Below, in pieces: positions 6,033-52,033 of a DNA stretch of 64,000 bases. The stretch lies in the NCBI GenBank assembly GCA_938038815.1, contig CALHTF010000013.1:36588-100587 (forward strand). The letters are read 5' to 3'. The translations under genes were made by a program, and so were the position numbers. The number at the start of each line of letters is the position of its first letter. Position 1 is the first letter of the stretch. The notes beneath the pieces were generated by a model, which had not been told where the DNA came from, did not search any database, and worked only from the letters and a program-made list of their open reading frames with translations. This DNA comes from an uncultured Acidimicrobiales bacterium (GTDB lineage Bacteria; Actinomycetota; Acidimicrobiia; Acidimicrobiales; SHLQ01).

Positions 6033-7109
6033 ATGAGCGAGCAAAAGACCCGGGTGATCGTCCTGTTTGGTGGACGTTCAGCCGAGCACGATGTTTCCTG
6101 CGTCACCGCCCGACATGTGTTGAGCGCCACCGACCCGAACAAGTACCAGGTCATCCCGATCGGCATCACCAGAGACGGTGCGTGGGTTCGGGCCGACGAT
6201 GCGCTCGCCGCCCTCAAGTCCGGCGCCGACGCACTGCCCGACGCGCTCAAGCCGGTGGGTTCTGATTTCGACCTGCTGCCATCGGTACGCCAGGCGGTTC
6301 ATGAAGGCCAGCAGGTCGTGGTCTTTCCGCTCATGCATGGGCCGCTCGGCGAAGACGGCACCATGCAGGGATTGCTCGAAATCGCCAACGTTCCCTACGT
6401 CGGTGCCGGCGTGCTCGGCTCGGCCCTGGCGATGGACAAGATCAAAGCCAAAGAGACCGCGGCGTATCACGGGATTGCCCAAGCCAATTGGCGAGGCCTG
6501 CACGCCACCGAGGTGCACGACACAACCGCTGACGAACTCATCGCCGAGCTTGGTCTTCCGTTGTGGATCAAGCCCGCCAATATGGGTTCGTCGATCGGGG
6601 TCAGCCGGGCCTATAACGCCGACGAGGTTCGGGCCGGACTCGACCTCGCTGCGTCGTACGACGAGTGGATCGTGGCCGAAGAAAACGTCGATGGTCGCGA
6701 GATCGAGATGGCCGTGCTCGGCAACCTTGAACCCGAAGTCTCGTTGCCCGGAGAAATCGAGCCGACCGAAGGGTTCTACAGCTACAGCGACAAGTACATC
6801 GACGGGTCGGCCGGACTCTTGATCCCCGCTCCCCTGTCCGATGCCGAGATCGCTGAGGCCCAAGCACTCGCCGTCAAAGCCTTCAAGGCCTTGCGATGCG
6901 AAGGCATGGCCCGGGCCGACTTCTTCTACGACGCCGGCGGTCGAGGCTGGCTACTCAACGAACTCAACACGATTCCGGGCTTTACGCCGATCTCGATGTA
7001 CCCAAAGATGTGGGAAGCATCCGGACTCGAGTATTCGGCACTCATCGACCGACTGGTCGAGCTAGCGATCGAACGATTCGAACGTCGTCCACGACGGACC
7101 GATCACTAG
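6033..7109 (+). CDS. ddl: D-alanine--D-alanine ligase
   Basis: MSEQKTRVIVLFGGRSAEHDVSCVTA..., HGPLGEDGTMQGLLE, and an ATP-grasp C-terminus ending in NELNTIPGFT. Start set at the ATG at 6033, in frame within track ORF 5451..7109. Confidence 0.9.
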   Translation: MSEQKTRVIVLFGGRSAEHDVSCVTARHVLSATDPNKYQVIPIGITRDGAWVRADDALAALKSGADALPDALKPVGSDFDLLPSVRQAVHEGQQVVVFPLMHGPLGEDGTMQGLLEIANVPYVGAGVLGSALAMDKIKAKETAAYHGIAQANWRGLHATEVHDTTADELIAELGLPLWIKPANMGSSIGVSRAYNADEVRAGLDLAASYDEWIVAEENVDGREIEMAVLGNLEPEVSLPGEIEPTEGFYSYSDKYIDGSAGLLIPAPLSDAEIAEAQALAVKAFKALRCEGMARADFFYDAGGRGWLLNELNTIPGFTPISMYPKMWEASGLEYSALIDRLVELAIERFERRPRRTDH

Positions 7110-11080: not shown

Positions 11081-12696
11081 TGGCAAGCCAGCCCAAACGG
11101 GCGCCTCGCCCCGGACTCGTACTCGACGTCGACCGGTCAACCCCGCCCGTTTTGTTCCACCACGGCGAAGGGTTCCGCCTAGAAAAGCTGCCGCCTGAGC
11201 GGTCGCGGATTATCTATCCCGCCGAACCATTGCCCGGCCTGGCCGACCCCGACGGCGCAATTCGCGACGCGCTCGCCAACCCAACCGGCGACAGCGAACC
11301 GCTGCACGCACTGTTGTTCGCCGGCATGAAGCTGACGATTGCGTTCGACGACATCTCGTTGCCGCTGCCGTCGATGCAAAAGCCCGACATCCGCCAGCGC
11401 ATCATCGAAGCGGTACTCGACCTCGCGGCCGCTGCTGGGGTTGACGATGTCCACCTCATCGCCGCACTCGCCCTGCACCGCCGGATGACCGAACCCGAGT
11501 TGCGCCACGCGGTCGGCGACCGGGTGTACGACGCCTTTGCCCCGCAGGGGTCGTTGTACAACCACGACGCCGAAGACCCCGACGGCATGGTCATCTTGGG
11601 CCAAACCCCTCACGGAGAAGACGTACAGATCTCCAAGCGGGCAGCCGAAAGCGATCTGGTCGTGTACGTCAACATCAACATCGTGTCGATGGACGGCGGC
11701 TGGAAATCGACCGCTACCGGACTCAGCGGCTACCAAGCGCTCAAGCATCATCACAACCCGGAAACGATGCGCAACACCAAGTCGATGATGGACAAAGACA
11801 ACAGCGAGCTGCACCGCTCGAACTGGCGTCAGGGCAAAGTCCTCAAAGACTCCGACCTCAAGATCTTCCAAATCGAGACCACGATCAACAACAACACGTT
11901 CGGCCACGATGGCCCGATGTCGGTGCTGCAAAAGCGCGAGTGGGAATGGTCGCCACGCGACCGCGCCTCGTTTCTGGCGATGCAGACCGGGCTCAAAGCA
12001 ATGTCGGGCCGAGCTCGTCGCAATGTCTTCCAGAGCTGGAAGGCACCCTATGAGATGACCTCGGTACAGGCCGGCGAGGTAGAAGCCGTCCACGACAAAA
12101 CGATCGAGAACGTCTACAAACAGCATCTCGTTCCGGTCGAGGGACAAACCGACATCATGACGATGGGCCTGCCGTACATCTGCCCGTATAACGTCAACTC
12201 GATCATGAACCCCATTCTGGTGATGTGCCTGGGACTGGGGTACTTCTTCAACATGTACAAGGGTCGTCCGCTGGTGCGCGAAGGTGGCGTGCTCATCATG
12301 AGCCACCCGACGCCGTGGGAGTTCCACCCGGTTCATCACCCGAGTTACATCGATTTCTTCGAGCAGGTCCTCACCGAAACGAAGGACCCGTCGGAGATGA
12401 GCGAGAAGTACGAAAAGCAGTTCGCCGAAGACGAGTGGTACCGCCACCTGTACCGGACCTCCTACGCCTACCACGGCGTGCACCCGTTCTACATGTGGTA
12501 CTGGGGCGCTCATGCGCTCGAACATCTCGGCCAGGTCATCATCGTGGGCGGCGATACTCGCTCGGTCCGCCGCCTTGGTTTCCGGCCGGCGTCGACGCTC
12601 AACGATGCGCTCGAGATGGCCACCGATGTGGTTGGCCCCCAGCCGACGATCACCCACTATCACAACCCGCCGATCCTTATGGCCGACGTGACGTGA
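11080..12696 (+). CDS. LarA-like (lactate racemase N-terminal / DUF2088) domain protein
   Basis: The ATG at 11080 overlaps the upstream TGA (TGATG). LarA-like blocks are present: LTIAFDDISLPLPSMQKPDIRQRIIEAVLD..VHLIAALALHRRMTEPE and VNINIVSMDGGWKSTATGLSGYQALKHHHN. Confidence 0.7.
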   Translation: MASQPKRAPRPGLVLDVDRSTPPVLFHHGEGFRLEKLPPERSRIIYPAEPLPGLADPDGAIRDALANPTGDSEPLHALLFAGMKLTIAFDDISLPLPSMQKPDIRQRIIEAVLDLAAAAGVDDVHLIAALALHRRMTEPELRHAVGDRVYDAFAPQGSLYNHDAEDPDGMVILGQTPHGEDVQISKRAAESDLVVYVNINIVSMDGGWKSTATGLSGYQALKHHHNPETMRNTKSMMDKDNSELHRSNWRQGKVLKDSDLKIFQIETTINNNTFGHDGPMSVLQKREWEWSPRDRASFLAMQTGLKAMSGRARRNVFQSWKAPYEMTSVQAGEVEAVHDKTIENVYKQHLVPVEGQTDIMTMGLPYICPYNVNSIMNPILVMCLGLGYFFNMYKGRPLVREGGVLIMSHPTPWEFHPVHHPSYIDFFEQVLTETKDPSEMSEKYEKQFAEDEWYRHLYRTSYAYHGVHPFYMWYWGAHALEHLGQVIIVGGDTRSVRRLGFRPASTLNDALEMATDVVGPQPTITHYHNPPILMADVT

Positions 12697-13613
12697 CCTT
12701 CGAACTGAAGCGCCCGCAGATCAAGAAGCCGCTCGCCAAGCTGCCGTTTCCGCTGCGCGCCCCGTCGACCCCGCTTTCGGTCGAACCGCTTCCGGCCGAC
12801 GAAAACACCGGAGCAAACTACGACACCGAGTGGGCTCGGTCGCCGGGTGCCCGGGCCTTCCGCGGCGCGTTGACCACTGCGGTCATGAAGCCGGCGATGA
12901 CCATGCTCGCTTCGCCCACGGTCAAGGGTCTCGACCGACTCGACAGCCTCGACGGTCCAGCGATTTTCGCGGCGAACCACCACAGCCATCTCGACACCCC
13001 ATTGCTGATCACCACGATCCCCGAACCATGGCGCAGCGAACTCGTGGTCGGCGGCGCGGCCGACTACTTCTTCAGCTCGCGAGCCAAAGGCGCCGTAGCA
13101 GCCCTCACGCTGGCCGCGTTTCCCGTCGAGCGCGACAGCACCGGACGCAAGACCGTCGATCTGGCAGCCGAAATGCTCGACGAAGGTTGGAGCATCTTGA
13201 TCTACCCCGAAGGCGGCCGGAGCCCCGATGGTTGGGGCCAACCCTTTCGACGCGGCGCGGCCTACCTTTCGAAGCGCTGCGATGTGCCGGTGGTACCGAT
13301 CCATGTCGAAGGCACGGGTCGCATCCTGCGCAAGGGCCGCAAACTGCCGAACCCCTCAACGTCGAAGATCACCTTCGGCGCGCCGGTCAAGGCCAACGAG
13401 GGCGAACGAACCGCCAGCCTCAGCGAGCGGCTCGAGGCATCGGTCGCCGAGCTTGCCGATGAAGCCACCACCGACTGGTGGACGGCCCGCCAGCGGGCCC
13501 ACGCTGGCACCACTCCCCCAATGCACGGCCCCAACGCCGGAGCCTGGCGCCGGGTGTGGGCGCTCGACCAAGACCGCCGCAACAAACCGAAACGAACCTG
13601 GCCCCGGCTCTAA
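12693..13613 (+). CDS. Lysophospholipid / 1-acyl-sn-glycerol-3-phosphate acyltransferase (PlsC family)
   Basis: The GTG at 12693 overlaps the upstream stop (GTGA). Acyltransferase motifs are present: HxxxxD box FAANHHSHLDTPLL, plus FPVERD and IYPEGGRS. Confidence 0.8.
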   Translation: MTFELKRPQIKKPLAKLPFPLRAPSTPLSVEPLPADENTGANYDTEWARSPGARAFRGALTTAVMKPAMTMLASPTVKGLDRLDSLDGPAIFAANHHSHLDTPLLITTIPEPWRSELVVGGAADYFFSSRAKGAVAALTLAAFPVERDSTGRKTVDLAAEMLDEGWSILIYPEGGRSPDGWGQPFRRGAAYLSKRCDVPVVPIHVEGTGRILRKGRKLPNPSTSKITFGAPVKANEGERTASLSERLEASVAELADEATTDWWTARQRAHAGTTPPMHGPNAGAWRRVWALDQDRRNKPKRTWPRL

Positions 13614-30135: not shown

Positions 30136-30591
30136 ATGAATGTTGGCGATATCGCATCTGATTTCACCGCCCCAGACCAAACAGGGACCAACCTCACGTT
30201 GAGCACCCTGCTTGAGGAAGGGCCCGTGGTCCTGTTCTTCTATCCGAAGGCCATGACCCCTGGTTGAACCAAGGAAAGCTGTCATTTCCGTGACCTGGAG
30301 AGCGAGTTCGCAGAACTCGGTGCCCAGCGAGTGGGAATCAGCGCTGACTCGGTGAGTCGGCAGAAGGAATTCGACGACCTGAACTCCCTCGGGTTCCCGT
30401 TGTTGTCCGACGGCGATAAGTCGATCGCCAAGGCGTTTGGCGTCAAACGATTCGGCCCGGTGCCGTCCAAGCGCGCCACATTTGTCATCGACACCGACCG
30501 CAAGGTCCTGGCGGCGGTGGCCAGCGAAACGTCGATGACCGACCACGCCGACAAGGCCCTTGAAGCCTTGGCCGCCCGCCACGCCGGATGA
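30136..30591 (+). CDS. bcp: Bcp/PrxQ-type peroxiredoxin with in-frame TGA (30265-30267) at the peroxidatic Cys position; candidate selenoprotein or recent pseudogene
   Basis: Manual translation gives MNVGDIASDFTAPDQTGTNLTLSTLLEEGPVVLFFYPKAMTPG-TGA-TKESCHFRDLESEFAELGAQRVGISADSVSRQKEF..., in frame with track ORF 30331..30591. It matches the remembered E. coli Bcp block FYPKAMTPGCTVQAC. Confidence 0.7.
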
Positions 30592-31028
30592 GGATCTCGT
30601 TAGGTTCTGATCACGCCGGGTACGACCTCAAGTCGCACCTGGTCGAGTTCCTCGGCGCGGCCGGCCACGACATCGTCGACTGCGGCACCGATTCGACCGA
30701 GTCGGTCGACTACCCCGAGTTCTGCGCCAACGCGGCCCGAGCGGTGGTAGCCGGCGACGCCGATTTCGCCATTGTCATGGGCGGCTCTGGCCAAGGCGAA
30801 CAGTTGGCCGCCAACAAGGTCAAAGGCGTGCGAGCCGCGCTGTGTAACGACCTCTACACCGCCCGGATGGCCCGCGAACACAACGATGCCAACGTGCTTT
30901 CCATCGGCGCACGGGTGGTTGGGCTCGGCCTCGCCGAAGAGATCGTCACGTTGTTTCTCACGACCGACTTTGAGGGCGGCCGCCACCAGCGCCGGGTCGA
31001 CCAGGTCATGGCGATCGAGAAGGACTAA
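30588..31028 (+). CDS. rpiB: Ribose-5-phosphate isomerase B
   Basis: MRISLGSDHAGYDLK..., GGSGQGEQLAANKVKGVRAAL and HNDANVLSIGARV match the RpiB/LacAB family. The ATG overlaps the bcp stop (ATGA). Confidence 0.9.
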   Translation: MRISLGSDHAGYDLKSHLVEFLGAAGHDIVDCGTDSTESVDYPEFCANAARAVVAGDADFAIVMGGSGQGEQLAANKVKGVRAALCNDLYTARMAREHNDANVLSIGARVVGLGLAEEIVTLFLTTDFEGGRHQRRVDQVMAIEKD

Positions 31029-35184: not shown

Positions 35185-37068
35185 CTACCCCGCTGCTTCT
35201 GCTTCTCGCGCTCGCTTCAGGTTCTTTTGTACACGGGCCCGAGCGGTTGCATCGAGTTCAACCTTGCGAAGCCGGATCTTGTCGGGGGTGACCTCGACGC
35301 ACTCGTCGTCGCCGATGAACTCCAGCGACTGTTCGAGCGAGAACTTGGTCGCGGGGGTGATCTTCACCGTGTCGTCGGAGCCGGCGGCCCGAATGTTGGT
35401 GTGGGCCTTGTCCTTGCAGATGTTGACGTCCATGTCGCCGGCCTTCGGGGTTTCCCCAACGACCATGCCTTCGTAGACGTCGTCGCCAACCTCGACGAAG
35501 AACGCGCCACGGTCTTGCAACTTGACGATCGCGTTACTCGAGGCGTTGCCCGAACGGTCGGCGATCATCGAACCCTTGTGACGAGAGGTGATCTCGCCCT
35601 GCCAGGGGACCCAACCGTCGAACACGTGGTTCACCAGACCGGTGCCACGAGTTTCGGTAAGAAAGTCGGTGCGGAACCCGATCAGGCCGCGCGCCGGAAT
35701 GGTGTAGTCCATCCGCACCCAGCCGTTGCTGTGGTTGGTGATCTCCAACATGTTTCCTCGGCGAGGGGCAAGCAGCTGGGTTACGCCACCGACGAACTCC
35801 TCGGGGATGTCGATCGTGAGGCGTTCGTTGGGCTCGTGCAGGGCGCCGTCGATTTCACGGGTAACAACCTGGGGCTTCCCAACGGTCAATTCGAAACCTT
35901 CACGACGCATCATCTCGACCAGCACAGCGAGCTGCAGCTCGCCTCGGCCCTGGACCTCCCAGGCATCGGGCCGGTCGAGGTCAAGAACGCGAAGCGAGAC
36001 GTTACCGATGAGTTCTTTGTCGAGTCGGTCCTTCACCTGGCGGGCGGTGAGCTTCGTACCGCCGCTGCGGCCCGCCATCGGCGACGTGTTGATACCGATG
36101 GTCATCGACAGGCTTGGTTCGTCGACGGTAATGAGCGGCATCGGACGTGGGTCGTCGGGAGCGCACAGGGTTTCGCCGATCGTGACCTCGGGAAGACCCG
36201 CAACGGCGATGAGCTCGCCGGCCGAAGCCTCGGTGGCCTCAACCCGTTGGTGGCTTTCGGTTACATAGAGCTCGGTGATCTTGGCGTTTTGGCTCGTGCC
36301 GTCGGTCTTGCACCACGAAACGCTCTGCCCCTTCTTGATCGTGCCGTTGATCATCTTGCAGATCGCCAGACGGCCCACGTAGGCCGAGGCATCGAGGTTG
36401 GTGACCCAGGCCTGGACCGGGTGACCCTCTTCGTAGGTCGGGGCCGGCACCCGCTCGAGGATGGTGTCGAACAGCGGCTTGAGGTCGGTGCCGGGGGTAT
36501 CGAGATCGAGGGTCGCCTGGCCGTCGCGGGCGACGGTGTACACGATCGGGAAGTCGATTTGGTGCTCGTCGGCATCGATATCGAGAAAGAGGTCTTCGAC
36601 CTCGGCAACCACCTCGGCGATACGAGCGTCGGGACGGTCGATCTTGTTGATGACCAACACAACCGGCAGATCGGCATCGAGCGCCTTACGAAGCACAAAG
36701 CGGGTTTGGGGCAGTGGACCCTCACTGGCGTCGACGAGCAGCACCACACCATCGACCATCGTGAGCGCTCGTTCGACCTCGCCACCAAAGTCGGCGTGAC
36801 CCGGTGTATCGACCACGTTCACCTTGGTGTCGCCCCAGGTGATGGCGGTGTTCTTGGCCAGGATGGTGATGCCCTTTTCCTTCTCGAGGTCCATCGAGTC
36901 CATGACCCGCTCTTCCATCTCCTGATGGCCCGAGAATGCACCAGCTTGCTGCAGCATTCCGTCGACGAGCGTGGTTTTTCCGTGGTCGACGTGGGCAATG
37001 ATCGCGATGTTGCGGATGTCGTCTCGCGTCGAAAGGGTGGCGGGGGGCGCGGTTGTTGAAGAGGTCAC
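35185..37068 (-). CDS. typA: Translational GTPase TypA/BipA
   Basis: IRNIAIIAHVDHGKTTLVD, DTPGHADFGGEVER and NKIDRPDAR are present, with EF-G-like domains and a BipA-specific C-terminal domain. Confidence 0.92.
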   Translation of the reverse strand: MTSSTTAPPATLSTRDDIRNIAIIAHVDHGKTTLVDGMLQQAGAFSGHQEMEERVMDSMDLEKEKGITILAKNTAITWGDTKVNVVDTPGHADFGGEVERALTMVDGVVLLVDASEGPLPQTRFVLRKALDADLPVVLVINKIDRPDARIAEVVAEVEDLFLDIDADEHQIDFPIVYTVARDGQATLDLDTPGTDLKPLFDTILERVPAPTYEEGHPVQAWVTNLDASAYVGRLAICKMINGTIKKGQSVSWCKTDGTSQNAKITELYVTESHQRVEATEASAGELIAVAGLPEVTIGETLCAPDDPRPMPLITVDEPSLSMTIGINTSPMAGRSGGTKLTARQVKDRLDKELIGNVSLRVLDLDRPDAWEVQGRGELQLAVLVEMMRREGFELTVGKPQVVTREIDGALHEPNERLTIDIPEEFVGGVTQLLAPRRGNMLEITNHSNGWVRMDYTIPARGLIGFRTDFLTETRGTGLVNHVFDGWVPWQGEITSRHKGSMIADRSGNASSNAIVKLQDRGAFFVEVGDDVYEGMVVGETPKAGDMDVNICKDKAHTNIRAAGSDDTVKITPATKFSLEQSLEFIGDDECVEVTPDKIRLRKVELDATARARVQKNLKRAREAEAAG

Positions 37069-44018: not shown

Positions 44019-44621
44019 TTAGAGTTCTACGTCTCGGCGGCCTGATAGGGCTCGGCCGAGGGTTAGTTCGTCGGCGTATTCGAGGTCGCCGCCTACGGGT
44101 AGGCCGCTGGCGATTCGGGTGGTGCGGATTCCCATTGGTCGGATCCGGCTCACCAGGTGCATGGCGGTTGCCTCACCCTCGATATTGGGGTTCATGCACA
44201 AGATGACCTCGCGCACACCCTCAGCCTCGAGGCGAGCCATCAGCTCGCGGATCCGCAACTGATCGGGGCCAATGCCATCGATGGGGCTAATCGCCCCTTG
44301 CAAGACGTGATAGCGGCCCCCGAATTCGCCGGTGCGTTCGATCGCCACGATGTCGCGGGGCTCCTCGACTACACACAACACCTCGGTTGGACGCCGGGCG
44401 TCGGTGCAAATCTCGCACTCGGCGCCGATCTCGGCGATGTTGAAACACCGCGGACAAAAACCGATCCGGTCCTTTACCTCAACAACCGCGTGCACCAACC
44501 GGTGCGCTTCCTCGCGCGACACCAAAAGCAGGTGGAACGCGATGCGTTGGGCCGACTTTGGACCCACGCCCGGCAGCCGGCCGAGCGTATCGATCAGTTC
44601 TTGAACCGGTGCTGCGTACAA
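44019..44621 (-). CDS. recR: Recombination protein RecR
   Basis: LIDTLGRLPGVGPKSAQRIAFHLL, the zinc finger CPRCFNIAE..CEIC, and a Toprim domain are present. Confidence 0.92.
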   Translation of the reverse strand: MYAAPVQELIDTLGRLPGVGPKSAQRIAFHLLLVSREEAHRLVHAVVEVKDRIGFCPRCFNIAEIGAECEICTDARRPTEVLCVVEEPRDIVAIERTGEFGGRYHVLQGAISPIDGIGPDQLRIRELMARLEAEGVREVILCMNPNIEGEATAMHLVSRIRPMGIRTTRIASGLPVGGDLEYADELTLGRALSGRRDVEL

Positions 44622-45025: not shown

Positions 45026-47077
45026 TTACTCGTCGTCCTGTACGAGCTCCGCACCGGGGAATGCTTTGGTGAGCTTGTCGATCGCGCTGCCGTCGTTGGT
45101 GGGAGCGTCGGAGAGCTCGCTGACATCGACGACCTCGTCTTCGAGCTCGACCGGTTCGGGTTTGCGTTGCGGCTGGGGGCGGGGCTCGGGCGACGATCCG
45201 ACATTTGAACCGTCGGGGACCCGGCCACCGCTGGCTCCCGAAACGAGTTCGATCGGCACCGGTCGACCAAAGTGGGCCGCCAGCGACTCTTCGACTTCGC
45301 CCTGGACTTCCTCGCAGCGCTTCCGGTGAGGTTCGTTGGGGAGGTTGACCACCACGGCTGGTCCGTCGCTCGACACGAACTCGGCGATGCCGAATCGGGA
45401 GCGGGCCCGACCAGACACGTTGCTCAGGATGCCTTCTTTCCACACTGCGGCGATCTCGTCCGGTGTGGGAAGCGGGCCGCCAGCAGCGGGAGCCGGTGAC
45501 GCTTCGGCGACCGGCTCAGGTTCGGGCACTTGTTCGACCGGCGGTTCCTCGGCTGCCGGCGCGACCGCAGGTTCAGGCGTCGACTCGGCGGCCGGGGGCG
45601 CTTCGGCCTCGACGACCGGCTCGGGCGCTGGCTCGGCGGGAGGGGGACTGGGCGCATCGGCGGCGGGCGGCGGGGTTGGGGCGGATTCGCCCAACGGTGG
45701 CGGTGGGGTGGGTGGGCCATCCTCGACCGGAGCCTCGACCGCCTTGGGGGCCGAAGGTGCGGCACCACCGCGGCCAAGTTTGGCGGCCAACGTGGCCCGA
45801 GCTGCGGCGGCGGGGCCTTGGCCTCCAGCCGGCGCGGGTGCGGGCGGTGCGGGGGCGGGTGATTCTGGGGTTTGCGGGGCGATCGGTGCTGGTGCTGGAG
45901 CGGCATCGCCAACTGCAGGTGCCTCACGCGCTGGGGCCGGGGCGGGTGCCGCGGGGGCCGCTGCCGAAGCTACTCCGCTGGCGAGTGCCTGTTCGAGTTT
46001 GGCGATTCGACTCACCAGGCCTTCGACCGACGTGTCGGCGTCGGCCCGAGTCAGCTTCACCAAGGCAACTTCGAGATCGACACGCGGGTCGGGCGCCTGG
46101 CGCATTTCGACCAACGACGTACCGACCAACTCAAGCGCCCGGGTGAGCGTGGCGGGCGCCAACAACTCGGCGTAGTGCTCGGCCCGGGTGAGGTCGCTTT
46201 GGGAAAGGTGCGGCACCTCGCTGCCCATGGCAACAAGGAACACTTCGCGCAATGCATCGATGAGGTTCTCGCCGATTACCCGGGGGTCGAAGCCCCGATT
46301 GGTCGCGTCCGATACCGCGGTGAGGGCCTTCGCTGCGTCGCCGGTGGCCAACGCTTCGAGAAGATCGGTGGTGGAGTTGTCGGCGGCGCCGACGCCACCG
46401 GCCGCCACTACTTGATCGAGCGCCGACAGCGTGTCGCGAGCCGATCCTCCGCCGGCCCGAATGACGTATTCGATCATTGCGTCGTCGACATCGAGCCCGG
46501 CGTCGGCGGAGATTTCGGTGACGAGGTCGGTGATCTGCTCGGCCGACAACAGCGTGAGTTCGAGGTGCTGGGTGCGGCTGCGGATCGTGGGCACCACCTT
46601 GTGCGGCTCGGTGGTGGCGAGCACAAAGGTGACGTGAGCCGGCGGCTCTTCAAGGGTCTTAAGGAGCGCGTTCTCCGCACCGGAGGTGAGCATGTGGACC
46701 TCATCGAGGAGGTACACCTTGTTGCGGCCGGGGGTACCGAGCGCAACCTTGGCGAGCAGGTCGCGAATGTCGTCGACCTTGTTGTTCGAGGCCGCATCGA
46801 GTTCGTGAAGGTCGAACGAACTTCCCGACTCGATCGAGGTGCACGAGTCGCACTCGCCGCACGGTTCGCCGTCGGAAACGTTCTCGCAGTTGAGTACCTT
46901 GGCCAGCAGTCGCGCCGTGGTGGTTTTGCCGGTGCCTCGGGGGCCACTCAAGAGATAGGCGTGGCCAACCCGTTCTTCACGTACTGCGTTCTGGATGGTG
47001 CGAACGACGTGTTCTTGGCCCTTGACCTCGGAGAATCGACGAGGCCGGTAGCGACGGTAAAGCGACTGGTACTCCAT
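45026..47077 (-). CDS. dnaX: DNA polymerase III subunits gamma/tau
   Basis: YRRYRPRRFSEVKGQEHV, GPRGTGKTTTARLLAK, the Zn module CGECDSC, and DEVHMLT are present. The Pro/Ala-rich tau linker is long. Confidence 0.92.
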   Translation of the reverse strand: MEYQSLYRRYRPRRFSEVKGQEHVVRTIQNAVREERVGHAYLLSGPRGTGKTTTARLLAKVLNCENVSDGEPCGECDSCTSIESGSSFDLHELDAASNNKVDDIRDLLAKVALGTPGRNKVYLLDEVHMLTSGAENALLKTLEEPPAHVTFVLATTEPHKVVPTIRSRTQHLELTLLSAEQITDLVTEISADAGLDVDDAMIEYVIRAGGGSARDTLSALDQVVAAGGVGAADNSTTDLLEALATGDAAKALTAVSDATNRGFDPRVIGENLIDALREVFLVAMGSEVPHLSQSDLTRAEHYAELLAPATLTRALELVGTSLVEMRQAPDPRVDLEVALVKLTRADADTSVEGLVSRIAKLEQALASGVASAAAPAAPAPAPAREAPAVGDAAPAPAPIAPQTPESPAPAPPAPAPAGGQGPAAAARATLAAKLGRGGAAPSAPKAVEAPVEDGPPTPPPPLGESAPTPPPAADAPSPPPAEPAPEPVVEAEAPPAAESTPEPAVAPAAEEPPVEQVPEPEPVAEASPAPAAGGPLPTPDEIAAVWKEGILSNVSGRARSRFGIAEFVSSDGPAVVVNLPNEPHRKRCEEVQGEVEESLAAHFGRPVPIELVSGASGGRVPDGSNVGSSPEPRPQPQRKPEPVELEDEVVDVSELSDAPTNDGSAIDKLTKAFPGAELVQDDE

Positions 47078-51751: not shown

Positions 51752-51777
51752 TCGGTTAGTGAGCGCAGCGAACGGCG

Positions 51778-51862
51778 CGGAGGAGGTGGGATTCGAACCC
51801 ACGGTAGGTCTCCCTACACACGCTTTCCAAGCGTGCCGGATCGGCCGCTCTCGCACTCCTCC
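51778..51862 (-). tRNA. tRNA-Ser (anticodon GGA), no encoded CCA
   Basis: The reverse complement reads GGAGGAGUGCGAGAGCGGCCGAUCCGGCACGCUUGGAAAGCGUGUGUAGGGAGACCUACCGUGGGUUCGAAUCCCACCUCCUCCG. It shows a 7-bp acceptor stem, the anticodon loop UUGGAAA, a long variable arm, and a GGUUCGAAUCC T-loop. Confidence 0.9.
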
Positions 51863-51927: not shown

Positions 51928-52033
51928 GTGGCGACCGGGTCCTGTGCAATTGAGTTCTGTGAACCGAGTCAGGGCCGGAAGGCAGCAGCTCTCAGCGGAA
52001 AACTCGATGTGCCGCAGATCGCCTGGTCGTCAC
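51928..52033 (+). ncRNA. ffs: Signal recognition particle RNA (small bacterial 4.5S type)
   Basis: AGUCAGGGCCGGAAGGCAGCAGCUC matches the conserved domain IV motif (E. coli GGUCAGGUCCGGAAGGAAGCAGCC), with the GGAA tetraloop at 51977-51980. The ends pair as GUGGCGACC (51928-36) with GGUCGUCAC (52025-33). Internal helices are CUGUGC/GCCGCAG and GAGUU/AACUC. Confidence 0.78.

Follow-up and report, generated by a model that had tools for sequence, protein, structure and literature searches.

The window analysed here is a 64,000-nt stretch of contig CALHTF010000013.1 (positions 36,588–100,587 of the forward strand; assembly GCA_938038815.1) from an uncultured Acidimicrobiales bacterium. It has a G+C content of 63%, and its nearest relatives are metagenome-assembled genomes (MAGs) of Acidimicrobiales. 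The locus under study is a prxQ/bcp gene encoding a peroxiredoxin of PrxQ type, with an in-frame TGA at the codon for the peroxidatic residue that is very probably decoded as selenocysteine (Sec). The coding sequence 3′ of this codon contains an RNA element based upon three helices, which we term P1, P2 and P3 (Table 1). The context of the TGA is FFYPKAMTPG-TGA-TKESCHFRD. It is the sole interruption of the frame, in agreement with an earlier note on this DNA that reported no other lesion in the 151 codons. The mechanical list of open reading frames (ORFs) gives the gene only as two pieces, 30136–30267 (43 aa) and 30331–30591 (86 aa). Within the window TGA is a normal terminator that closes ∼15 of the 52 genes in a rough call. 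The standard code thus applies and there is no global reassignment, as the note had also said. The ATG of rpiB (30588) and the prxQ stop share the sequence ATGA. This overlap had been taken as a sign that ribosomes reach the end of prxQ; it is present, but it is weak as evidence and translational coupling was rejected as an argument, because only the nearest relatives (loci L001/L002, L048 and L015) retain the prxQ–rpiB synteny.

When Cys is placed at the stop, the product matches the Pfam family AhpC-TSA (PF00578) with E = 1.2e-34 (119.3 bits against a cut-off of 26), residues 3–125 covering profile positions 1–122 of 124. It also matches Redoxin (2.1e-20). PDB entry 5epf_A (‘Peroxiredoxin’, 162 aa), which we take to be a mycobacterial PrxQ/Bcp-type enzyme, aligns end to end (E = 5e-52). 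The TGA is aligned with the Cys of TPGCTKEAC in 5epf_A, where the second Cys follows five residues on, and with the Cys of TPGCT in 62 homologues that have TGC or TGT. The stop therefore lies exactly at the peroxidatic Cys with the resolving Cys five residues beyond, which bears out the central observation of the earlier note. The active site reads P37-KAM-T41-PG-[UGA]44, matching PxxxTxxC, and Cys49 is invariant across the Sec and Cys forms of the subfamily, as in an atypical 2-Cys PrxQ. Homologues are abundant (7,929 at E ≤ 0.001 among 8,000 candidates scored). The nearest NCBIfam match is thiol peroxidase/PrxQ, under the equivalog cut-offs; the levels of E. coli Bcp NF006960 (100 bits against 140) and Deinococcus PrxQ NF053650 (85.8 bits against 260) are not reached. 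On sequence grounds the product is a thioredoxin-dependent PrxQ-type peroxiredoxin of the actinobacterial TKESCHFRD (5epf-like) subfamily.

The TGA is not peculiar to the window. The pattern FYPxxxTPG-TGA-T....C, which requires the TGA, was run on one genome per species and matched at least 120 species genomes of many phyla. The chance expectation is ∼0.5 matches in the genome collection (a rough estimate), and 0 in shuffles of the window. Among the matches listed, every one is an in-frame PrxQ gene whose frame stays open for ∼100–115 further codons. The groups with a TGA-bearing PrxQ include Acidobacteriota, Planctomycetota, Myxococcota, Gemmatimonadota and Acidimicrobiales. Two other public assemblies contain near-identical DNA with the identical TGA and one synonymous difference. 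Metagenomes were scanned by the post-TGA peptide alone, making the Sec and Cys forms equally findable. Of the 80 loci of the TKESCHFRD subfamily so obtained 18 have TGA, 57 TGC and 5 TGT. All eight of the loci closest to the window (71–79% identity) have TGA, while the Cys forms are at most 71% identical.

There are 30 distinct TGA-bearing sequences in the TKESCHFRD subfamily, and in a neighbour-joining (distance) tree 29 of these fall into one clade, sister to clades with Cys (TGC/TGT). Within the Sec clade synonymous sites are near saturation (proportion of synonymous differences, pS, 0.5–0.9), and the ratio of nonsynonymous to synonymous differences (pN/pS) is 0.31 on the 5′ side of the TGA and 0.34 on the 3′ side. 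The 100 codons after the TGA contain no stop in any of 28 relatives. From the TGA to the next possible start there are 21 codons (TKESCHFRDLESEFAELGAQR), which are among the best conserved of the protein and include the resolving Cys. Because the codon is conserved clade-wide, with equal purifying selection on either side and no later stops, the TGA is, as judged from these alignments, old, maintained and translated through. The gene has the marks of a selenoprotein, with an in-frame UGA opposite the catalytic Cys of homologues (a Sec/Cys pair) that orthologues retain, the sequence on either side being conserved as coding. Gene calls split the relatives in the same manner as the window, in L001 (1814–1945 and 2009–2269) and L002 (643–774 and 838–1098), again into 43 + 86 aa, each piece with an AhpC-TSA match. 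The Sec-PrxQ of this clade is thus systematically mis-annotated in assemblies.

Several individual sequences depart from the common pattern. Locus L085 has two Sec-PrxQ genes ∼4 kb apart on the minus strand (reverse-complement offsets 834 and 4921) that closely resemble the deltaproteobacterial genes of L003 and L005. In L052 (minus strand, reverse-complement offset 7184) the Sec-PrxQ leaves the family ∼35 codons after the UGA and continues in another frame; a frameshift is probable, in a pseudogene or through an assembly error. L146 and L195 have TPL-U in place of TPG-U, and L129 and L179 have FYIKA and so are without the conserved Pro of PxxxTxxC. On contig CAXMSE010000107.1 (L006, 6.5 kb), which was assigned to a ‘Gammaproteobacteria’ bin, there is a Sec-PrxQ gene typical of the Acidimicrobiales clade, complete with P1–P3; the contig is probably mis-binned.

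In the description of the RNA that follows, positions with a plus sign are counted from the U of the UGA, and codon numbers are counted after the UGA (Thr+1). The element comprises 84 nt (30278–30361, +13 to +96). From its 5′ end the RNA forms the first strand of P1, and then the P2 hairpin, which is enclosed by P1. After the second strand of P1 it passes into the P3 hairpin with no unpaired base between them. P3 resembles the bacterial Sec insertion sequence (SECIS) hairpin, and begins 75 bases 3′ of the TGA. For the window element the minimum free energy and centroid structures are both the P1/P2/P3 fold (−39.9 kcal/mol, z −2.26), and the fold evaluated on the window sequence has −35.7 kcal/mol. 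P3 alone has −10.6 kcal/mol (z −3.46), and is the only perfect 8-bp hairpin with a GGU loop in the 64 kb.

Table 1. Coordinates of the prxQ gene, its recoding element and other features of the window
Feature	Position	Position from UGA	Strand	Description
prxQ/bcp	30136–30591		+	151 codons including one in-frame TGA; ATG 30136, final TGA 30589–30591 (translation)
UGA, probable selenocysteine codon	30265–30267		+	Peroxidatic-Cys position, PxxxTxxU (alignment to Cys homologues)
UGU, resolving Cys codon	30280–30282		+	Five residues past the Sec position; overlaps the 2-nt bulge of P1
P1, 5′ strand	30278–30289	+13 to +24	+	GCUG[UC]AUUUCC, pairs with 30333–30342
P2 hairpin	30295–30327	+30 to +62	+	CUGG..CGAGUUC-GCA-GAACUCG..CCAG; enclosed by P1
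P1, 3′ strand	30333–30342	+68 to +77	+	GGGAAUCAGC; Sec-specific codons GGA/GGG (Gly23) and AGY (Ser25)
P3 hairpin	30343–30361	+78 to +96	+	GCUGACUC-GGU-GAGUCGGC, 8 bp, GGU triloop 30351–30353; proposed SelB-binding (SECIS) hairpin
rpiB, ribose-5-phosphate isomerase B	30588–31028		+	Context, outside the recoding element; passes NCBIfam cut-offs
tRNA-Ser(GGA)	51777–51862		−	Adjoins small SRP RNA
Small signal recognition particle (SRP) RNA	51933–52031		+	Adjoins tRNA-Ser(GGA)
ORF, 1,120 aa	52068–55430		−	Repetitive, Cys-rich, apparently secreted, ∼100-aa repeats

The same fold emerges from comparison of the relatives. RNAalifold applied de novo to 29 Sec sequences gave P1, the top of P2 and P3 (−13.5 kcal/mol), and for 57 Cys sequences it gave no consensus structure (−0.8 kcal/mol). 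Over the interval 0 to +77 alone the consensus was weak (−2.9 kcal/mol), and the fold emerged once the region reached +107. In the Sec alignment 91.6% of the cells are paired, a level reached by none of 500 shuffles, with 26–49% in slid controls. Double changes occupy 32 cells where 9.6 were expected (again 0/500 shuffles). The mean energy of the P1/P2/P3 fold is −26.6 kcal/mol for the Sec forms and +0.7 kcal/mol for the Cys forms. On randomization of synonymous codons over +12 to +98 the Sec forms have z −2.67, with p ≤ 0.05 in 86% of sequences, against z −0.23 and 5% for the Cys forms (Mann–Whitney p = 2e-12). In a sliding version of the test the Sec forms peak at +78 to +119, with z −2.48 and 79% of sequences below −1.64 (Cys forms z −0.57, 14%), while +24 to +65 gives z −1.16 for the Sec and −0.12 for the Cys forms.

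The three helices contribute unequally. P1 is paired in 94.8% of cells across the 29 sequences, with 9.48 of 10 pairs formed where 6.24 are expected from synonymous randomization, and 21 of the 29 sequences reach p ≤ 0.05. P3 is paired in 94.4% of cells, and has compensatory changes at five of its eight pairs; the stem occurs as GAUCC/GGAUC, GACCA/UGGUC, GAUCA/UGAUC and GCAGAUCC/GGAUCUGC. It has 7.55 of 8 pairs in the Sec forms against 2.84 in the Cys forms, and is fully paired in 69 and 0%, respectively. Synonymous randomization of P3 predicts only 4.55 pairs, a difference with p ≤ 0.05 in 27 of the 29 sequences. Its loop is GGU in 25/29, the remainder having GUU, GGC or GUC, together with CAU in locus L049, which lacks P3. 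The upper stem of P2 is 90.6% paired (6.34 of 7 pairs in the Sec against 4.63 of 7 in the Cys forms), and the lower stem is 79.3% paired with three of its four pairs compensatory. The departure of P2 from synonymous randomization is weak (9.52 pairs, 8.24 expected, 6/29 sequences at p ≤ 0.05). The element contains invariant and frequent G–U pairs on the sense strand, which points to a constraint on RNA and not on a DNA palindrome.

A covariance model built for the element scores the clade members at 84–134 bits, except L049 at 77.2. L034, a basal Sec form from the Acidimicrobiales chromosome OZ244029.1 that was outside the model-building set, scores 92.6 bits, and the Cys forms score at most 78.8. 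The Sec-PrxQ genes of other phyla score at most 22 bits, and nothing else in the window or its flanks exceeds ∼22 bits. Rfam covariance models match 30200–30450 at chance level only (E ≥ 0.2), and no Rfam family fits the element.

The fold is reflected in the choice of codons. When Sec and Cys forms matched for third-position G+C (GC3) are compared, a Sec-specific synonymous bias extends from about −6 to +104. Ser4 is encoded by AGC in 20/20 Sec forms (AGC or AGT in 20/29 Cys forms), and His6 by CAU in 13/19 (4/29 in the Cys forms). The GC3 fraction of Gly23 is 0.30 in the Sec forms, where GGA is frequent, against 0.97 in the Cys forms; corresponding values are 0.25 and 0.83 for Asp27, and 0.05 and 0.79 for Asp30. 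Since synonymous sites are saturated, inherited codon choice is an unlikely explanation. The comparative data taken together point to an RNA fold that is conserved, co-varying, kept by synonymous codon choice and absent from the Cys homologues. The comparison of orthologues that the earlier note proposed as a check has thus given TGA in the nearest relatives, TGC/TGT in the sister clades, and a downstream structure that co-varies.

Further features of codon usage lie outside the helices. The codons at −2 and −1 (30259–30264) are nearly always CCU GGU in the Sec forms (20 GC3-matched clade sequences), with GC3 fractions of 0.30 and 0.15, against 0.90 and 0.86 in the Cys forms. Thr+1 is mostly ACG in the Sec forms and ACC in the Cys forms. 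GGU before the UGA is also enriched (32%) in the Sec-PrxQ of other phyla. The bias around the UGA may reflect an influence of the P site or of context on recoding. On the 3′ side of P3, at 30361–30372 (+96 to +107), there are Sec-specific A-ending codons (CAA and GAA; codons 32 and 34) that are outside any definable helix. In L049 (5954–6064; Acidimicrobiales chromosome OZ244202.1) a His-to-Arg change yields a 6-bp proximal hairpin GAAAGC-UGUC-GCUUUC at +9 to +24. L049 may represent a different SECIS solution, or else a gene in decay.

Two other hairpins, at 30273–30289 and 30303–30319, had been put forward in the earlier note as possible SECIS. Both exist, yet the 74-nt stretch considered folds no better than its shuffles (z −0.33). 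The first is unselected beyond its amino acid content and was rejected; its 3′ arm is part of P1. The second is real, but forms only the tip of P2. For the first hairpin, and for an alternative GUCAU-UUCC-GUGAC, a few pairs are commoner in the Sec than the Cys forms, and no fold was resolvable. P3, the hairpin best supported as SECIS-like, had been missed.

Bacterial SECIS (bSECIS) elements have a loop of 3–9 nt on an upper stem of 4–16 bp, with an energy of ≤−7.5 kcal/mol; there is a G in either of the first two positions of the loop, usually followed by G or U, and 16–37 nt separate the UGA from the apical loop (PMC13188914 Fig. 2). P3 agrees with these rules in its loop (3 nt, GGU), stem (8 bp) and energy (−10.6 kcal/mol). 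Its spacing falls to 18 nt only when the 65-nt insert of P1 and P2 is discounted. The corresponding distance from the UGA is 42 nt for the loop of P2 (at +45), and 10 nt for the hairpin at 30273–30289.

These relationships suggest how the element might act. SelB carrying Sec-tRNASec would be recruited by the mRNA element within the coding sequence. The start of P1 (+13) would lie near the mRNA entrance of the ribosome when the UGA is in the A site, where canonical SECIS stems start. P1 would serve as a clamp; because it loops out the 65 nt of P1 and P2, and adjoins P3, the latter would be presented at the mRNA entrance with an effective spacing of ∼18 nt. P3 would then be the hairpin that binds SelB, with P2 stabilizing the junction. 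The element would thus be a discontinuous bSECIS, a model whose chance of being correct we place just on the favourable side of even. As a plausible, indeed likely, driver of the displacement we see the catalytic ESCHFRD codons that follow the UGA, in which the usual stem cannot be encoded. The stretch encoding P3, A-D-x-V-x-R-Q, is more permissive, and the Sec forms have Arg (CGG) there where the Cys forms have Lys. In the enzyme itself Sec44 would be oxidized by peroxide to the selenenic acid, and then be resolved by Cys49 into an intramolecular selenenylsulfide that thioredoxin reduces, as expected from the family.

A number of points weigh against Sec decoding through a discontinuous SECIS. 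The loop of P3 is 83 nt from the UGA, outside the 16–37 nt rule, and the clamp arrangement is purely a model. P1 is little variable with one compensatory pair; the case for it comes chiefly from the synonymous-codon tests and the contrast between Sec and Cys forms, and its inner half permits two registers differing by one base. L049 keeps the TGA while lacking P3 and having a weakened P1. The Sec sequences share descent, so the shuffle and Mann–Whitney figures given above overstate their independence. A permissive bSECIS-style scan finds rule-compliant local hairpins in 90% of clade sequences, though these are mutually non-homologous; the rules are too permissive for a claim that the clade has no rule-compliant local hairpin, and this claim was dropped. 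Lastly, neither the 64-kb window nor ∼1.3 Mb of related loci showed tRNA-Sec, selA, selB or selD, which says little where the genome measures several Mb. Searches with ARAGORN and Rfam gave no tRNA-Sec in the window and 202 related loci. A tblastn search of the same sequences with an E. coli SelD sequence gave no match, which is a weak negative. The sole SelB-like GTPase of the window, at 35185–37068 on the minus strand, was rejected as SelB; it is TypA/BipA (901 bits), and scores 67 with the selB model against a cut-off of 242. Sec machinery is known in the same class. All 84 complete genomes of Actinomarina are reported to contain a complete set with a ‘divergent’ selB, and Actinomarinales is the sister order of Acidimicrobiales within Acidimicrobiia (bioRxiv 10.64898/2026.04.03.716425).

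The codon might be a true Sec codon with SelB recruited by P2 or by a weak hairpin close to the UGA. P1 and P3 would then be tied to recoding in another manner; they might slow the ribosome, hinder release factor RF2 or protect mRNA with queued ribosomes. This is possible, though on balance we doubt it. P2 is better paired in the Sec than the Cys forms, with compensatory changes in its lower stem and a z of −1.16 against −0.12 over +24 to +65. L049 would be accommodated, since it keeps the TGA without P3 and has the 6-bp proximal hairpin with a UGUC loop, and the Sec-specific bias in the codons before the TGA suggests context effects beyond a hairpin. Yet the loop of P2 is variable (GCA, GCC, GGU, AGU, UCC, UCG, AAC and others) where that of P3 is GGU in 25 of 29, and only six of 29 sequences support P2 at synonymous sites. 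Selection is strongest on P1 and P3, and there is no excess structure over +3 to +33 (z −0.36). The loop of P2, moreover, lies at the far end of the P1–P2 arm, 42 nt from the UGA, and would face away from the ribosome.

The remaining explanations deny Sec altogether. The UGA might be translated as another residue, for example as Cys by a tRNA with a UCA anticodon, or by near-cognate read-through stimulated by the downstream structure. In favour of this, Sec machinery was not seen in the window and related loci, and the geometry is unlike the textbook SECIS. Cys-inserting tRNAs that read UGA are described in a few bacteria. We consider such decoding improbable, for TGC or TGT would be simpler were Cys wanted, and all the sister clades use these. 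The codon falls at the catalytic Cys/Sec residue of a family in which many Sec forms are on record (PMC13188914, PMC2398784), P3 has the stem and the apical loop beginning G(G/U) that are typical of SelB-binding hairpins (PMC13188914 Fig. 2), and Sec machinery occurs in the same class (bioRxiv 10.64898/2026.04.03.716425). That the TGA is a nonsense mutation in a recent pseudogene, or a sequencing error, was allowed as the alternative in the earlier note. One change from TGY suffices, and public gene callers do split the gene (43 + 86 aa), but independent assemblies agree on the TGA and 30 diverged sequences conserve it, with pN/pS ∼0.3 on both sides, no further stops and a Sec-specific RNA structure that has co-evolved with it. 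We give this explanation next to no credence. Nor can we give much more thought to a genuinely split gene, callable though its two ORFs are, in which a 43-aa N-terminal peptide and a C-terminal protein starting at GTG 30331 perhaps assemble; the 21 highly conserved codons between the TGA and this GTG include the resolving Cys, and a split would drop the catalytic residue. We conclude that the UGA at 30265–30267 of this PrxQ is very probably decoded as Sec, the Sec-for-Cys reading favoured by the clade-wide TGA, the equal purifying selection on the two halves, the Sec-specific RNA structure and the membership of a known selenoprotein family. The identity of the inserted residue is inferred.

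Other selenoprotein genes were also sought in the window. Scanning for continuity of GC3 across TGA codons gave only frame artefacts of a genome with 63% G+C, and a scan for CxxU/UxxC motifs gave 290 noisy candidates. Apparent gaps between genes at 6250–7106 and 11594–13262 are ordinary genes missed by the rough caller. A few kb from the SRP RNA, the ORFs at 45026–47077 and 44019–44621 look, from their sequences, like dnaX and recR.

If the model is correct, bacterial Sec insertion needs spatial and not linear adjacency of the SECIS to the UGA. Both teaching and search methods treat bSECIS elements as hairpins 16–37 nt from the UGA, and the element described here is a testable case of linear versus three-dimensional proximity. 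A displaced SECIS would help to explain selenoprotein genes missed by structure-based tools (PMC12013277, PMC9312934). Through split gene calls the selenoproteomes of Acidimicrobiales, which are abundant in soil and sea, are under-counted. The element also suggests a design route for recombinant selenoproteins, in which the SECIS is moved off residues that must stay unaltered.

Like the canonical bSECIS (E. coli fdhF type; consensus of Zhang and Gladyshev) the element is part of the coding region and follows the UGA on its 3′ side. P3 is similar in its 8-bp stem and 3-nt GG(U) loop, and the start of P1 at +13 approximates that of the canonical stem. It differs in that the hairpin is parted from the UGA by the structured 65-nt insert of P1 and P2. 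To our knowledge no bSECIS presented by a long-range helix has been described, and none was found in the literature searched. The archaeal and eukaryotic SECIS of the 3′ untranslated region are likewise not next to the UGA along the RNA, but this is an analogy only, as they employ other factors (SBP2/eEFSec, aSelB) and other motifs, and the present element stays within the coding region.

A further comparison is with Sec-PrxQ genes from outside this lineage (Acidobacteriota, Myxococcota and other phyla), which have a strong hairpin, typically GGGUUGCGG-GUU-CCGCGACCU, at +11 to +31. In 59 of 100 genes the first base of its apical loop is at +20, and in 82 it is between +20 and +26. P3 shares with these the gene family, a G–U-containing triloop and a stem of 8–9 bp, and their spacing of 17 nt compares with an effective 18 nt for P3 when P1–P2 is discounted. 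In the other phyla, however, the codons that immediately follow the UGA, those for E-G/A-C-G-F-R-D, encode the hairpin. The subfamily of the window lacks the canonical +11 to +31 stem (∼5/9 pairs) because E-S-C-H-F-R-D is encoded there.

As a protein, the product shares with the Sec-peroxiredoxin family (PF00578/COG1225 Bcp, TxxU) the fold, the PxxxTxxU motif and the peroxidatic UGA; Cys homologues are far commoner. The window gene belongs to a distinct actinobacterial TKESCHFRD subfamily, and its RNA signal is not the local hairpin of the other members. Peroxiredoxin (TxxU) is listed among the verified or high-confidence families of prokaryotic selenoproteins (PMC13188914, PMC9312934). The Global Ocean Sampling (GOS) data contain 253 Sec-peroxiredoxin sequences (PMC2398784), and a survey of >5,200 sequenced organisms found the family in 78, making it the seventh most widespread (PMC5029168). 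PDB 5epf_A shares the block TPG-C/U-TKE-x-C-HFRDL with the resolving Cys at +5, and has Cys instead of Sec. PrxU of Eubacterium acidaminophilum, an experimentally proven Sec-peroxiredoxin, also has Sec at the peroxidatic position, but is of a different subfamily (NF040737; 40.4 bits for the window protein against a cut-off of 270). Sec-PrxQ is thus an already known kind of selenoprotein; what is new is the Sec-specific, displaced three-helix RNA element of this Acidimicrobiales clade.

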